This document shows positions 1-4,129 of a DNA stretch of 8,196 nt, in pieces. Origin of the DNA: a virus (taxonomy: Duplodnaviria; Heunggongvirae; Uroviricota; Caudoviricetes); the IMG/VR virus record IMGVR_UViG_2671180984_000037; one strand, given 5' to 3'. The position numbers and the translations under genes are program-made. Position 1 is the stretch's first letter; each line of letters starts with the position of its first letter. Under the pieces are notes generated by a model. It made no database searches, was not told where the DNA came from, and saw nothing but the letters and a program-made list of their open reading frames with translations.

Positions 1-74
1 CCCGTAACGCCTCTGCCACGCGCGTAACGTGACAGGGATTAAGGGTAAACTAATTGATTTTGCAAGTTTTTATT

Positions 75-1361
75 TTACCCTGCTTTCTTATGGGGCATAC
101 ATGGGACACTTTCAGATAGTCTTTTGTTAAGGAGTTCTATCTGTTCGTGATTGTTGTCTTTCATCCATGCTCCGTAAACATTGAATACCATTTGTGCGTT
201 TGTGTGGCCCATCTGGCTTGCGATAAAACTAGGATTAGCTCCTGCGGCAAGTGACCAGCATGCATAAGTATGCCTGGATTGGTACGATTTTCTGTGTCTC
301 AGACCTGCGCGTTTTAAGATACTTGTCCATGACTCCCTGATGGAGTCAACCTTGTAGTGAGGTCCGGACAACTGCTGCTGTTTTGTTACCTGAGGACTAA
401 AAACAAAAGTGCATTTATGCACAGCAGTTCTCCCATATTCCCTCTGCTTCACCTCTACAGAATGTTGCTTTCCAAGCATGGTCATTTCCGCCTGGCTTTT
501 AAGAGCATCAATAGCTGGTTGAACCAGATGAATTGTCCTTCCGGTGCCTGCATCGGTTTTTGGTGGAGTGAATTCGCCAAGTTTTGTATAATTTCTACGG
601 ATGGTTATAGTCCTTGCTTTAAGGTCTATATCTTCCCATGCCAGCGATACCAACTCCCCGTGACGAATACCCGTGTATACAGCGAGAATCCACAGGTTTT
701 TTGTTTGTTGATGACGGCAAGCCTCAATAAAACGAATAAATTCGTCACGGGTGAGAGGATCTGGTTTTACCTTGGACTTTTTTAAGGGAGCCAGACCGTT
801 AAATGGGTTTCCTGAGGTATAACCATTATCTGTTGCAAATTGAAACATTCCAGCTATGGTTGTCATATAGTAGTTTACCGTGACCACTGAGCGCCCTTTT
901 ATGGAAGAAGTCTTTCCATTAGAAAGCTTTTGGTAACCGGTCAACAAATCTCTCCTTACGAAAAGTAAATCCTCTTTTGTTATGGATGAAACCAGTTTTT
1001 TTTCACCTAACATTGGTAACATGTTTTTAATTACTGACTGGTAACGGTTAAGTGCATTCGCACAAATCTCAATTTTCTTAAGGTCCAACCATTTTTCCGA
1101 AAGTGCCTTAACGGTTATCTCTCTTTTTCCCAGACCAAAGTGTTTCAGGTTAGGGGAATTAGGGAACTGCGCGGCGTAGTCGAAACTCCCCATTCTGATT
1201 GCAAAACAAACGGAAGTGCGAAGTTCACCAGCGATCTTCCGGTTTTTGTCTGTGTCAGGAACACCGAGGTTTTCTCTGACACGTTTGCCATTATAGTGAA
1301 ACCATATACGGAGTGATCCTCCATGGTTTTCAACGCCTGTCGGGTATGATGCGTTACTCAT
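75..1361 (-). CDS. int: Phage integrase, tyrosine site-specific recombinase (428 aa)
   Basis: Full-length minus-strand ORF with ATG at 1361 preceded by GGGAGG 4 nt upstream. C-terminal catalytic region carries the tyrosine-recombinase signature (LRHRKSYQSRHTYA ... MVFNVYGAW, i.e. the H-x-x-R box and a downstream catalytic Tyr). It is the last gene of the leftward operon and sits next to a small excisionase-like gene. Confidence 0.9.
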   Translation of the reverse strand: MSNASYPTGVENHGGSLRIWFHYNGKRVRENLGVPDTDKNRKIAGELRTSVCFAIRMGSFDYAAQFPNSPNLKHFGLGKREITVKALSEKWLDLKKIEICANALNRYQSVIKNMLPMLGEKKLVSSITKEDLLFVRRDLLTGYQKLSNGKTSSIKGRSVVTVNYYMTTIAGMFQFATDNGYTSGNPFNGLAPLKKSKVKPDPLTRDEFIRFIEACRHQQTKNLWILAVYTGIRHGELVSLAWEDIDLKARTITIRRNYTKLGEFTPPKTDAGTGRTIHLVQPAIDALKSQAEMTMLGKQHSVEVKQREYGRTAVHKCTFVFSPQVTKQQQLSGPHYKVDSIRESWTSILKRAGLRHRKSYQSRHTYACWSLAAGANPSFIASQMGHTNAQMVFNVYGAWMKDNNHEQIELLNKRLSESVPCMPHKKAG

Positions 1362-1394
1362 TAAACCTCCCAGACGTCCAGGAGCATTAACAGG

Positions 1395-1649
1395 TTAACC
1401 GGAACTTGCATTTTTGGCACCTGGTTGTTTCTGGTTTTCGATCCATCGCATAATTTCTTCGATGTTGTACAGGCATTCACTGTAATGCCCAGGATCACCT
1501 TCTACAGCGTAATGGCGGTATTCTTTTCCCTGCATCCATGACTTTCTTCTGGCCCGCTCGATGGTGCCGGGCTTTAGCCCTGTTGATGCAATAAGGACTC
1601 TCTCCGTACACCATTTGCTGGGGGTTATCTGATAGATGATTGTCTGCAT
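1395..1649 (-). CDS. Excisionase-like small DNA-binding protein (84 aa)
   Basis: ATG at 1649 with GAGGT 5 nt upstream. Small basic protein immediately upstream of and co-oriented with int, the canonical xis position. Assignment rests on position and size plus a remembered resemblance to the DUF1233-type phage excisionases; not confirmed by search. Confidence 0.55.
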   Translation of the reverse strand: MQTIIYQITPSKWCTERVLIASTGLKPGTIERARRKSWMQGKEYRHYAVEGDPGHYSECLYNIEEIMRWIENQKQPGAKNASSG

Positions 1650-1667
1650 GCCAACCTCATAAAACTT

Positions 1668-1802
1668 TCATCCACGGCAGTGGCACCACACGTCAAACAT
1701 TCGTTTCGCAACTTCACGGCAGTAGAAGCCGTCGACATCACGGGTCAGGTCGTAGCGATTGCCGAATGTCTTGCGAACCCAGAACTCAAAAGCCGTATGC
1801 AT
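1668..1802 (-). CDS. Hypothetical small protein (44 aa), not in the supplied ORF track
   Basis: Hand translation of the minus strand gives MHTAFEFWVRKTFGNRYDLTRDVDGFYCREVAKRMFDVWCHCRG. ATG at 1802 is preceded by a strong GGAGGTGA Shine-Dalgarno and lies 3 nt after the stop of the upstream 80-aa ORF; its stop is 18 nt before the xis-like start. Confidence 0.4.
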   Translation of the reverse strand: MHTAFEFWVRKTFGNRYDLTRDVDGFYCREVAKRMFDVWCHCRG

Positions 1803-1805
1803 GTA

Positions 1806-2048
1806 TCACCTCCGTTGCATTGCGCGTAATTTTTTCAGGCGCATTTCCTGCTCAGTGCCCGCCAGAATTTTGCGGTACTCCTGTTGGTCAATATGTTCGA
1901 ACAGGTTGTTGAACTCACCAATGCGTACCCGTCCGGAGCGCCCGTCCATGCGTCGAAAGAACACTGAGTGCTGAGTACTGCGAGTAATCACCACAGGGTA
2001 TCCGGCTCTGTCCGTGTATATCTGACCACGTTGAATCAGAGCGAACAT
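1806..2048 (-). CDS. Hypothetical phage protein (80 aa)
   Basis: ATG at 2048 with AAGGA 5 nt upstream, tightly packed in the leftward operon. Charged composition looks protein-like. No family recognised. Confidence 0.5.
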   Translation of the reverse strand: MFALIQRGQIYTDRAGYPVVITRSTQHSVFFRRMDGRSGRVRIGEFNNLFEHIDQQEYRKILAGTEQEMRLKKLRAMQRR

Positions 2049-2052
2049 TCCT

Positions 2053-2139
2053 TTATCCCCAGCGGAAAAGCGAATACAGAATAAATGCCACCGCTATTGC
2101 AACTCCAACTGCGGTGAATGCTTCAGGCCAATTCATCAT
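2053..2139 (-). CDS. Small hydrophobic peptide, 28 aa, predicted single transmembrane helix (MMNWPEAFTAVGVAIAVAFILYSLFRWG)
   Basis: Hand translation of the minus strand. Its ATG (2139..2137) overlaps the TGA stop of the DUF551 ORF in an ATGA arrangement, and its stop is 5 nt before the next ATG, so it fits translational coupling. Too short for the ORF track. Confidence 0.35.
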   Translation of the reverse strand: MMNWPEAFTAVGVAIAVAFILYSLFRWG

Positions 2140-2726
2140 TTCACCTCCTGCGGCGGTTCTGGTAGCTGCATCCAGTGGGTTACCTCTTTGAGATACAGGT
2201 CTTCGCCATCACCGTCATCCCAAGTGGGCTTGCCATCATTAAACCAGTCGCCATATACGCCGACCTGAGTGTTGGGGATGTTTGGTGGGTAGTTGTTTTT
2301 AAAGTCAGCTGCTAACACATAGCATTGTCGCTCTCCCATTTCAGGCATTCGCTCACTACAGCTTATCCAACCATCCGGAGTTGCCGGATAGTTGCCATTC
2401 ACAAGGTCAGCTCGAACATATAGCGTGTCATCATGGTGTTGATTGTGGCTGCACCACGTTAATTCGCTTAACTCGCCATCTTCTGGCCATACTCCAGCCG
2501 TTTGCAGCCAGATATGGGCTGGCGCATCTTGGCAAGGTGTATTAACTGGCAACTTGTAAGTTTGGCTTACAGGTTCTGCACTATCAGCCTTGCGGCGCTC
2601 CTGTAGCTCGCGCAGAGCCGCTACAACATAATGGCTATTGTGCTGGTCAGCCCACAGAATGAGCCGAATCAACGTTGCATTTGAAACGTATTCGTCTGTT
2701 AGTTTGCTATTGGTAAAAGTGGTCAT
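2136..2726 (-). CDS. DUF551-like phage protein (196 aa)
   Basis: ATG at 2726 with AGGTGA about 8 nt upstream. C-terminus (GDWFNDGKPTWDDGDGEDLYLKEVTHWMQLPEPP) matches the conserved W...THWM.LPEPP tail remembered for DUF551 proteins of lambdoid phages. Family call is from memory. Confidence 0.65.
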   Translation of the reverse strand: MTTFTNSKLTDEYVSNATLIRLILWADQHNSHYVVAALRELQERRKADSAEPVSQTYKLPVNTPCQDAPAHIWLQTAGVWPEDGELSELTWCSHNQHHDDTLYVRADLVNGNYPATPDGWISCSERMPEMGERQCYVLAADFKNNYPPNIPNTQVGVYGDWFNDGKPTWDDGDGEDLYLKEVTHWMQLPEPPQEVK

Positions 2727-2728
2727 AG

Positions 2729-2920
2729 CTATTTCACCTTAATCTCAACATTTCGCAGCTTTAGCTCTACTGGCAGGTCTGACTTTCCTGTTAATGCTAA
2801 TGCGAGATTTTCTGGAGTAATGAGAACAGTTATTGTTTTCCCCCTCGCCAGACGAATAATCATGCGTATCTCGCTATCGTCACATGCTCCTGGTCGAACA
2901 ATTGATATTTGTCCGTTCAT
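2729..2920 (-). CDS. Hypothetical small protein (63 aa)
   Basis: The ORF track begins this frame at a TTG (2950), but the in-frame ATG at 2920 has a strong AAGGAG 6 nt upstream and sits 1 nt after the TGA of the upstream gene. The shorter 63-aa product (MNGQISIVRPGACDD...) is therefore preferred. Confidence 0.5.
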   Translation of the reverse strand: MNGQISIVRPGACDDSEIRMIIRLARGKTITVLITPENLALALTGKSDLPVELKLRNVEIKVK

Positions 2921-2921
2921 C

Positions 2922-3509
2922 TCACTCTCCTTTGATGCGAATGCCAGCAAGCCAGGTTCTTATGCCGATATATTCAGCGTTCCTGAAACCGCTTTTTACA
3001 TATATAAATGGCAAGCGAAGATTGTGACCATTGGCTGCCAGGTAGTCTTTACAACCCTGTTCGGTGAAACAGCAGGTAACGAATTCATCAATATCTTTCA
3101 CAGCAACGCGCCGCCATTTTTCTGGTGGTTCCCGAAAGTTTTCATGAAGTAGTTCGAGACGACGACTTTGGAGTTTATTGGCTTCATTGCCATCTTCATC
3201 AACCCAGACAATCCGGTCATAGTCATAATCAGCATCAACAACAATTTCGCGCTTTTGATACACACAAAACATAGGGTCTGACGTTATTCGATTATCCTGT
3301 GTTCGAATATTTTCACCGATGATGCCAAACGAATCTGGCGTAGGTTTTGTCTGTAACTCTTCGATACGTTCAGCCAGCGCCGCGCACTTGGCCTCAGCTT
3401 CAGCAAATTTACGCACTAGGTACTCAGCGTTTGTTTCGTTCACTTTCAGATCTCGCGGTACACATTTCCCGCGAAGAAACCCTTCCATTTCGAAAACATT
3501 CATGCGCAT
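2922..3509 (-). CDS. Hypothetical phage protein with N-terminal coiled-coil, possibly ead/Ea22-like (193-195 aa)
   Basis: ATG at 3509 (alternative ATG at 3503) overlaps the stop of the upstream HD-domain gene. N-terminal segment AEAEAKCAALAERIEELQ is coiled-coil-like, followed by an acidic D/E-rich region. The Ea22-like label is a tentative memory-based call. Confidence 0.5.
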   Translation of the reverse strand: MRMNVFEMEGFLRGKCVPRDLKVNETNAEYLVRKFAEAEAKCAALAERIEELQTKPTPDSFGIIGENIRTQDNRITSDPMFCVYQKREIVVDADYDYDRIVWVDEDGNEANKLQSRRLELLHENFREPPEKWRRVAVKDIDEFVTCCFTEQGCKDYLAANGHNLRLPFIYVKSGFRNAEYIGIRTWLAGIRIKGE

Positions 3510-4036
3510 TTGCGTAACCCCGATAACTCGTTAAAACGTTCCATAAACATCCCGTAGGCATGGCCTGGTGACAGTGGAATAACTTTGAACATCTCTGTCG
3601 CCGGGATACCTTCCAGTACAGGCCAGAAAGAACCATCATCAAGCCCGAGATCGCGGCGTTCGGTTGCCAGCATAATGAGATCGGCATATTTCACTGGCGT
3701 GCTCATAACAGGAGGTAACCCGTATTTCTCACGGATTACGGCGTCTATTTTTTCTTCCATCCGTTTATAGTCAGGAAGAAGGCGTTTCAGTGGTGCGGGG
3801 ATGTCCTGGCAATATGCTTCTGTTGCATCATGCATTAACGCTTCAAAAGCAAATTCCTGCGGTACCAGCTGGCTGCAAAGCACCGCATGTTGGGCGACGC
3901 TGTAGAAGTGTGAAAGATGTCCTGCAAAGCGACAGATATTTGAAAGGGAAACCGCGATATCGTTAATAACGATGTCGTCTTTATTTATCTTGTCATAATA
4001 AAAATGCTTCCCGGAAAAAGTTTTAATAAATGACAT
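3500..4036 (-). CDS. yfdR: HD-domain 5'-deoxynucleotidase, YfbR/YfdR-like (178 aa)
   Basis: The ORF track begins at a GTG (4063); the in-frame ATG at 4036 with GGAGA 5 nt upstream gives 178 aa. HD-phosphohydrolase motifs are present (SVAQHAVL with the metal-binding His, LMHDATEAY with the HD dyad, then QDIPAPLK matching the GDLPTPVK region of E. coli YfbR). Size and order (120-aa, 274-aa, 178-aa genes) match the yfdP-yfdQ-yfdR genes of the CPS-53/KplE1 prophage as I remember them. Confidence 0.75.
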   Translation of the reverse strand: MSFIKTFSGKHFYYDKINKDDIVINDIAVSLSNICRFAGHLSHFYSVAQHAVLCSQLVPQEFAFEALMHDATEAYCQDIPAPLKRLLPDYKRMEEKIDAVIREKYGLPPVMSTPVKYADLIMLATERRDLGLDDGSFWPVLEGIPATEMFKVIPLSPGHAYGMFMERFNELSGLRKCA

Positions 4037-4129
4037 TTTGTTCTCCACGTATATGCGCTGCACCGCGCTGAATTCTGGTAAAAGGAAGCCCTCACCATCC
4101 GGCGATTATTGAGTAAATTATGTTTCCAT

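Follow-up and report, generated by a model that had tools for sequence, protein, structure and literature searches.

A cluster of very short open reading frames (ORFs) lies between a DUF551-domain gene and the excisionase gene of a lambdoid prophage, and the question raised by this locus is whether the shortest of them, with 28 codons, is a gene at all and what its product might do. We analysed it within a stretch of 8,196 nucleotides (IMG/VR virus record IMGVR_UViG_2671180984_000037; Caudoviricetes), hereafter the window, starting from an original prediction, made from the letters alone, that unannotated and translationally coupled small genes are found here, one of them encoding a hydrophobic peptide. 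We conclude that the minus-strand ORF at 2053-2139 is likely to be a genuine gene, encoding a single-pass membrane peptide of 27 or 28 residues that would found a family as yet without a name. This peptide family occurs on lambdoid prophages in Escherichia and Shigella, Shiga-toxin prophages among them.

Gene order, start codon and annotation

The window belongs to an E. coli prophage, lambdoid and of the BP-4795 / Stx1 type, whose insertion site is mlrA; the mlrA-adjoining prophages of O26, O145 and other STEC genomes are 100% identical to it, and phage BP-4795 itself is 95% identical. The order on the minus strand is DUF551 gene, 28-aa ORF, DUF4222 gene (80 aa), 44-aa ORF, xis and int (Table 1), and the ORF coordinates of the original prediction were all exact on that strand. 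The 28-aa ORF translates as MMNWPEAFTAVGVAIAVAFILYSLFRWG.

Table 1. Features of the small-ORF region and its surroundings in the window, with the evidence for each.
Feature	Position	Strand	Evidence
yfdR-like 5'-deoxynucleotidase	3500-4063	minus	
195-aa mosaic ORF	2922-3509	minus	
63-aa hypothetical	2729-2920	minus	
DUF551-domain protein, 196 aa, mosaic ead/Ea22/EaA type	2136..2726	minus	Pfam DUF551 E=3.4e-20; RefSeq WP_000206819.1
Shine-Dalgarno GGAGGTGA of peptide ORF, inside the last DUF551 codons	2141..2148	minus	sequence
Predicted micropeptide gene, 27/28 codons, stop TAA 2055-2053	2053..2139	minus	ORF, pN/pS, conservation
80-aa DUF4222 protein, distant RgdR-family member	1806..2048	minus	Pfam DUF4222 E=9.3e-16; PHROG 285
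Shine-Dalgarno GGAGGTGA of 44-aa ORF, includes the DUF4222 stop codon	1806..1813	minus	sequence
44-aa hypothetical protein	1668..1802	minus	RefSeq WP_000556582.1; BP-4795 ORF3; PHROG 3871
Excisionase xis, xisR type, next operon gene	1395..1649	minus	Pfam DUF1233 E=2e-29; PHROG 539
Tyrosine integrase int, adjoins mlrA at prophage end	75..1361	minus	

Upon examining the start of the peptide ORF, we found that its first ATG (2139-2137) shares the four letters ATGA with the DUF551 stop codon TGA (2138-2136), an overlap that had been predicted and is seen in the sequence, and that a second in-frame ATG follows at 2136-2134. The Shine-Dalgarno (SD) sequence GGAGGTGA (2148-2141) stands 4 nt ahead of the first ATG and 7 nt ahead of the second, and its presence before both the peptide ORF and the 44-aa ORF bears out the strong ribosome-binding sites described previously. 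The DUF4222 gene starts 4 nt past the peptide stop, the 44-aa ORF 3 nt past the DUF4222 stop and xis 18 nt past the 44-aa stop; the proposed gaps of 1-5 nt are therefore right for the small ORFs, which overlap or are separated by 3-4 nt, but not for the distance to xis. When the family members are compared, the second ATG of the window (2136) aligns with the sole ATG of all other members, and the 7-nt spacing between GGAGG and ATG, which is conserved in the family, matches this second ATG as well. These two observations favour initiation at the second ATG, so that the product consistent with the family would have 27 aa; the ATGA in the window is formed by the first ATG because the DUF551 gene here ends one codon earlier. 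A scan of both strands over positions 1300-3600 detected no promoter-like sites, and the sole terminator-like site in this interval, at 3322-3341, is neither inside the small-ORF region nor adjacent to it.

The annotation of the three small ORFs is uneven. RefSeq/PGAP and the BP-4795 record call the 44-aa and 80-aa ORFs and leave an 87-nt gap at the 28-aa ORF, and three further phage records are likewise without a call there. Of 40 RefSeq genomes sampled across those that carry the segment, 36 have nothing annotated under the peptide ORF; in the remaining four, all that reaches into it is a DUF551 CDS, whose last ~10 nt overlap it in a junction variant with a DUF551 that is ~10 nt longer. The exact peptide is present in a few GenBank submissions under the names 'hypothetical protein' or 'bacteriophage protein' (ETI78407.1, ASL58468.1, AOM45384.1), and its sequence was not found in the literature searched. 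The description of these ORFs as unannotated thus stands for the 28-aa ORF in RefSeq, but not for the 44-aa ORF, which is WP_000556582.1 or BP-4795 ORF3; the 80-aa ORF is likewise annotated in RefSeq, as DUF4222. The peptide gene is missing from the RefSeq annotation of O157:H7 Sakai, of EDL933 and of O26, O111 and O145 Stx prophages, so that annotation-based screens, whether of transcripts, proteins or mutants, do not see the peptide.

We also considered whether the peptide is part of a fusion with, or a frameshifted end of, the DUF551 protein. This was rejected, as the 121-aa 'DUF551' proteins of the same 90%-identity cluster lack the peptide, and the link of that cluster to DUF551 consists of contig-edge fragments of the peptide frame to which PGAP gave the name 'DUF551 ... 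partial'. An extended query of 40 aa retrieved only stand-alone calls of 43-47 aa, and among ~5.8 billion clustered proteins there was no longer protein with the partner and the peptide in one chain.

Conservation and coding signature

A tblastn search of 50,697 phage records with the peptide gave 97 matches over nearly its full length, the most divergent at ~48% amino-acid identity; 933W, VT1-Sakai, VT2-Sakai, Min27, ArgO145 and BP-4795 are among the phages matched. IMG/VR contained 428 confirmed relatives. Substitutions were counted over 37 distinct nucleotide versions, which encode 14 peptides, and the set was later enlarged to 41 versions. The 27-codon length and the stop are the same, with no indels, in 38 of these 41 versions, a set whose loci were fetched through peptide similarity and which is thereby biased towards intact copies. 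In the peptide frame pS is 0.288 and pN 0.094, giving a pN/pS of 0.33 (37 versions), whereas the two remaining sense frames give 1.03 and 2.69, and the minimum numbers of changes at codon positions 1, 2 and 3 are 18, 14 and 41; the antisense frame that has the same wobble positions reaches 0.35 and is closed in the window. Seven residues are invariant (M1, W3, P4, A6, G11, R25 and W26), which gives the pattern M-x-W-P-x-A…G…R-W across the versions.

The frame is broken in three versions, through a 1-nt deletion in L009, whose annotated 36-aa CDS is the frameshifted frame, through a TGG>TAG change in L014 (POCJ13) and through loss of the stop in L089. Conservation of the frame in related prophages, on which the original prediction had made its claim depend, is what we observe, with frame-breaking copies being a small minority (3/41). 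In agreement with the proposal that these are real genes, all three small ORFs are under purifying selection, with pN/pS values of 0.33, 0.29 and 0.22 for the peptide, DUF4222 and 44-aa ORFs, respectively, each well under its out-of-frame controls.

A 28-codon ORF alone is not unusual, with 70 ORFs of at least 20 aa overlapping the first 4 kb of the window; its conservation with a coding signature exceeds chance. As a control, the DNA pattern of the invariant residues was scanned over 185,579 species genomes, which yielded 72 matches. In all eight true matches codon 28 is a stop and the core is hydrophobic, a combination that none of the 64 chance matches shows. Reading the conservation as that of an RNA element was rejected, since the peptide region has no Rfam match at E<=1, no promoter-like site and no conserved RNA fold on either strand (alifold -5.3, column-shuffled mean -6.7); the single-sequence minimum free energy has a z of -0.49. 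We take the 28-aa ORF to be, very probably, a true micropeptide gene that is widespread and has been overlooked.

Distribution and mosaic flanks

The peptide segment occurs in 1,300 of the 5,426 complete E. coli genomes (24%), at 2,363 places in total, with up to 7 per genome and nearly all of them chromosomal. Across the 185,579 species genomes of the pattern scan, true matches are confined to Escherichia, Shigella and two tiny contigs that are probably contaminants, and one deposited fragment comes from Salmonella. In K-12 the peptide is absent from both CPS-53 (yfdS-yfdT-ypdJ-torI) and Qin (rem-hokD).

When the loci are aligned, homology breaks at both boundaries of the peptide ORF. Upstream, we distinguish at least four unrelated C-termini, namely DUF551 '...PEPPQEVNQ', '...GLISVEDILR', '...NIEQEVNR' of the coiled-coil protein L0139 in 933W, and '...KKKGMNQ', and DUF551 is the only Pfam domain among these types. 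Each of the 35 distinct contexts nevertheless retains the ATGA overlap with the upstream gene, and 31 of them have an SD core of 5 nt or more at a spacing of 4-10 nt. Right after the peptide stop come DUF4222, hokW/sokW, terminator-like hairpins or genes on the opposite strand, and in 933W the peptide is paired with an Ea22-like gene at a second genomic position, outside the exo-xis region. The region next to int is accordingly mosaic, with partners changing on either side of the peptide, which fits its earlier description as a place for accessory cargo. The case of this peptide indicates that ORFs of fewer than 30 codons can be validated by combining mosaic boundaries with codon-position statistics.

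Predicted properties of the peptide

Next, we investigated the amino-acid composition along the peptide. A 6-residue N-terminal tail, M-[TSN]-W-P-[ED]-A (MNWPEA in the window copy), is followed by a hydrophobic core of 18 residues and a C-terminal end of R-W-[GRW] (RWG in the window copy). The core always spans residues 7-24, its mean Kyte-Doolittle value is 1.85-2.80 in every variant, and substitutions within it swap hydrophobic residues, so the single hydrophobic helix of the original prediction recurs, as a predicted element, in all variants. The invariant W3 and W26 are 23 positions apart, a distance that would suit two membrane interfaces, and the acidic N-side (E/D5) and basic C-side (R25) suggest that the N-terminus faces the periplasm and the C-terminus the cytoplasm. 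The core also contains a GxxxA motif, G11-x3-A15, of which G11 is invariant and A15 nearly so. A packing face on the helix is plausible; the 100-degree periodicity of positional entropy along it is not significant (permutation p = 0.26).

Small single-pass membrane proteins such as KdpF (29 aa), MgtS (31), PmrR (29), AcrZ (49), CydX (37) and YohP (27) modulate larger membrane proteins and are often missed by annotation, and the genes for KdpF and CydX sit in the operon for the complex to which these proteins belong. The peptide is like all six in having fewer than 50 aa, one hydrophobic helix and interfacial aromatic or charged residues, whereas it differs from KdpF-type proteins in being phage-borne, in having no sequence similarity to them and in having soluble-looking mosaic proteins as its upstream partners. 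It is a new family among the small phage-encoded membrane proteins, a kind already known. No match above the cut-off was found in Pfam, NCBIfam or PHROGs, the best being KdpF (E=0.024), DUF883_C (E=0.07) and phrog_35838 (E=0.085); the PADLOC defence library and the solved structures returned nothing, and the homology search of the profile libraries (Pfam, NCBIfam, PHROGs, PADLOC) pointed to no kil-like, toxin or superinfection-exclusion family and to no target or function.

A lipoprotein or signal-peptide reading was rejected, the peptide having neither a basic N-terminus nor a lipobox [LVI][ASTVI][GAS]C. The motif in its place is YSIC, with Ile at -1, and its Cys24 is not conserved, being Phe in the window copy, with three residues remaining after position 24.

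Expression and possible function

The peptide would be transcribed with an early leftward operon that runs from DUF551 through the peptide, DUF4222 and the 44-aa ORF to xis, an expression pattern that we infer from the gene order, from the lack of internal promoter-like sites and from the exo-xis literature (PMC10834534). As this operon would be repressed in the lysogen, the peptide is expected to be silent there and to appear once the prophage is induced or a cell is infected. Hücker et al. 2017 do not list it among the intergenic ORFs that they report as translated in Sakai; their cultures were uninduced and would not express the peptide, which makes its absence uninformative. Ribosomes that end on the upstream Ea22/DUF551-type gene could re-initiate at the overlapping ATG, and the peptide, being too short to leave the ribosome before release, would be inserted into the inner membrane post-translationally, with its C-terminus probably cytoplasmic according to the positive-inside rule. 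By analogy with the known small membrane proteins, it may bind and modulate a host or phage inner-membrane protein via G11-x3-A15 and its interfacial Trp and Arg residues, a reading that we put forward tentatively, and a non-specific membrane-damaging toxin seems less likely.

The toxin reading deserves attention, as type I toxins (Hok/Gef, TisB, DinQ, ShoB, Ibs) are tiny hydrophobic inner-membrane peptides that are frequent on prophages, and the peptide is likewise tiny, hydrophobic, predicted to lie in the inner membrane and carried by prophages. A kil-like or type-I-like toxin would, on induction, depolarise or permeabilise the inner membrane or block division and shut down the host. The size and hydrophobicity of the peptide fall within the range of TisB, DinQ, ShoB and Hok, it has a single helix with a Kyte-Doolittle value of about 2.1-2.8, a dedicated antitoxin would be unnecessary in an operon repressed in the lysogen, where CI repression would keep the gene silent, and in 933W-type phages the peptide lies directly upstream of hokW/sokW, which are annotated beside it in 933W. 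However, the antisense RNA or antisense promoter, the conserved RNA structure and the long structured leader of type I toxins were not found, the strong SD and the coupling are the opposite of their tight translational repression, the sequence resembles no toxin family and genomes tolerate up to 7 copies; we regard a toxin as unlikely. The same coupling would ensure stoichiometric co-synthesis if the peptide were instead a membrane anchor or partner of the upstream Ea22/DUF551-type protein, tethering or regulating it. The stop of an upstream ead/Ea22/EaA-type gene is overlapped in 35/35 distinct contexts and the pair moves jointly to its second genomic location in 933W, but the upstream C-terminal domains are of at least four unrelated types, only one of them DUF551, with varied N-terminal modules, which is evidence against one conserved interface between peptide and partner, and no fused chain exists among the ~5.8 billion clustered proteins. 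We consider this reading rather doubtful.

Two further explanations deny the peptide a function of its own. If the ORF were a cis-acting relay, its translation would hand ribosomes to DUF4222 and xis or tune termination, and indeed the DUF4222 start is 4 nt from the peptide stop in the window and in other phages that stop lies a few nucleotides ahead of a terminator-like hairpin. Selection, however, acts at the amino-acid level (pN/pS 0.33; invariant W3, P4, G11, R25 and W26), substitutions preserve hydrophobicity and the downstream partner is not conserved, so that a relay appears very improbable. A chance spacer ORF, or a conserved non-coding RNA or DNA element spread by recent horizontal transfer, might be suspected from the lack of a call by PGAP and most submitters, from the plentiful supply of short ORFs and from the three broken copies. 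Such an element would hardly account for codon-position periodicity and low pN/pS at up to ~50% amino-acid divergence, for a constant length and stop position or for an SD and ATGA kept across unrelated flanks, and the region has neither an Rfam match, a conserved fold nor a promoter, while 0/64 chance pattern matches show the features of the peptide; we give this explanation scarcely any credence.

The locus can be compared with the lambda exo-xis genes ea22, ea8.5, orf60a, orf61, orf63 and orf73, which have a part in the lysis-lysogeny decision (PMC10834534, PMC10789677). The peptide gene shares with them the neighbourhood and the operon between the recombination genes and xis, a mosaic nature, predicted early expression and non-essentiality, and the gene upstream of it is one of the Ea22/DUF551 mosaic group. 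In contrast, the lambda exo-xis proteins are described as soluble domains (PMC10834534, PMC10789677), whereas the peptide is a predicted membrane helix, and a membrane peptide in this region is mentioned in neither PMC10834534 nor PMC10789677. It is possible, though we would not put it more strongly, that this micropeptide family, with members in the Shiga-toxin phages 933W, VT1-Sakai and VT2-Sakai, is always co-translated with the last Ea22/DUF551-type gene and acts as an inner-membrane effector of prophage induction or infection. If so, the effector might for example inhibit a host membrane protease, transporter or division protein, or exclude a superinfecting phage, and the peptide would be a missing part of the poorly understood exo-xis/Ea22 lysis-lysogeny module of Stx phages. 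The Ea22/exo-xis module, to which the peptide belongs or with which it moves, affects the induction of Stx prophages and through it the release of toxin; if the peptide acts on the membrane, it would be a new player in that module.

The neighbouring 80-aa and 44-aa proteins

The 80-aa protein matches Pfam DUF4222 (PF13973) with 57.6 bits against a cut-off of 27. Besides RgdR/ECs1581, we found no characterised DUF4222 protein in the literature searched. RgdR/ECs1581, encoded on a prophage, activates LEE type III secretion and represses motility (PMC3378721, PMC10877973), and its RGD motif matters for its activity (PMC3378721). Both proteins are small, basic and prophage-encoded and have the DUF4222 core R-G-x-I-Y-x-D...G..V.I in common. 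They differ in length (99 aa in RgdR, 80 aa in the window), in the motif, with RGQ in the window protein where RgdR has RGD, and in their loci, that of RgdR being a P4-like element with neither the peptide nor the 44-aa ORF. Identity amounts to 37% over 27 aa, and orthology to RgdR was rejected, the similarity being distant and limited to the domain core.

The 44-aa protein aligns to PHROG 3871 over its whole length (E=8.2e-32; residues 1-44 on positions 1-44 of a 48-position profile), and its family comprises 32 clusters, all from Escherichia or Shigella. Its conserved core is YGNRYDLTRDVDGFYCRE..RMF.VWCHCRG, in which Cys28, Cys40, His41 and Cys42 are nearly invariant, and this set of Cys and His residues suggests that the protein may bind a metal.

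Small open reading frames neighbouring the putative membrane micropeptide

We observed that the 44-aa protein family is confined to prophages of Escherichia and Shigella, and that its C-x11-CHC arrangement is near-constant across 18 peptide variants, with position 40 being Phe in one of them. Judging from these residues, the protein could be a putative small metal-binding knuckle. The DUF4222 relative RgdR is a prophage-encoded protein that activates LEE type III secretion in EHEC (PMC3378721, PMC10877973). The likeness of the 80-aa ORF to RgdR is limited to the domain core, and the RGD of RgdR is RGQ in the 80-aa ORF; therefore, on sequence grounds, RgdR-like regulatory activity cannot be assumed for it. 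Further upstream, the 195-aa ORF is a complete open frame with an ATG start in the window, although PGAP labels its homologous counterpart a pseudogene with an incomplete N-terminus.

Coordinates of the micropeptide's neighbours and of related loci
Feature	Location	Strand	Remarks
44-aa protein	window 1668-1802	(-)	Cys28, Cys40, His41, Cys42 kept in nearly all variants
80-aa ORF	window 1806-2048	(-)	DUF4222 domain, as in RgdR (ECs1581)
195-aa ORF	window 2922-3509	(-)	first ~35 residues are the K-12 YfdS N-terminus, divergent after
Peptide, phage 933W	L006 1201-1281; also L172 (58.8 kb against 1.4-5.8 kb)		after L0139/L0140
mlrA	L001 1054-1755		adjoins window 1-74
36-aa annotated CDS, phage vB_EcoS-689R5	L009 1199-1309		frameshifted version at the peptide position

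Genomic position of the prophage and of the micropeptide

The prophage is directly abutted by mlrA (yehV), the known Stx1-phage insertion site; in O157, phage insertion at this gene alters the regulation of curli. The peptide of 933W-type Stx2 phages lies after L0139/L0140 near the right prophage end, outside the int-adjacent exo-xis region, with the hokW/sokW toxin-antitoxin locus directly downstream; we take 933W and phi24B to be close relatives. A passage in PMC10789677 hints that some factor in exo-xis-type regions stresses the membrane, and because 933W, as phi24B's relative, has the peptide elsewhere, we draw no link from this hint to the peptide.

Annotation errors at the micropeptide locus

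Contig-edge fragments in the peptide frame (protein records P0003, P0016 and P0070; for example, GGESMTWPEAF...CRWG) carry the NCBI name 'DUF551 domain-containing protein, partial'. This is a misnaming, due to which the peptide and true DUF551 proteins fall into a spurious 90% cluster. The sole record with a CDS annotated at the peptide position is that of vB_EcoS-689R5, in frameshifted form, its WPEAF... frame being out of register because a 1-nt deletion follows the ATG.
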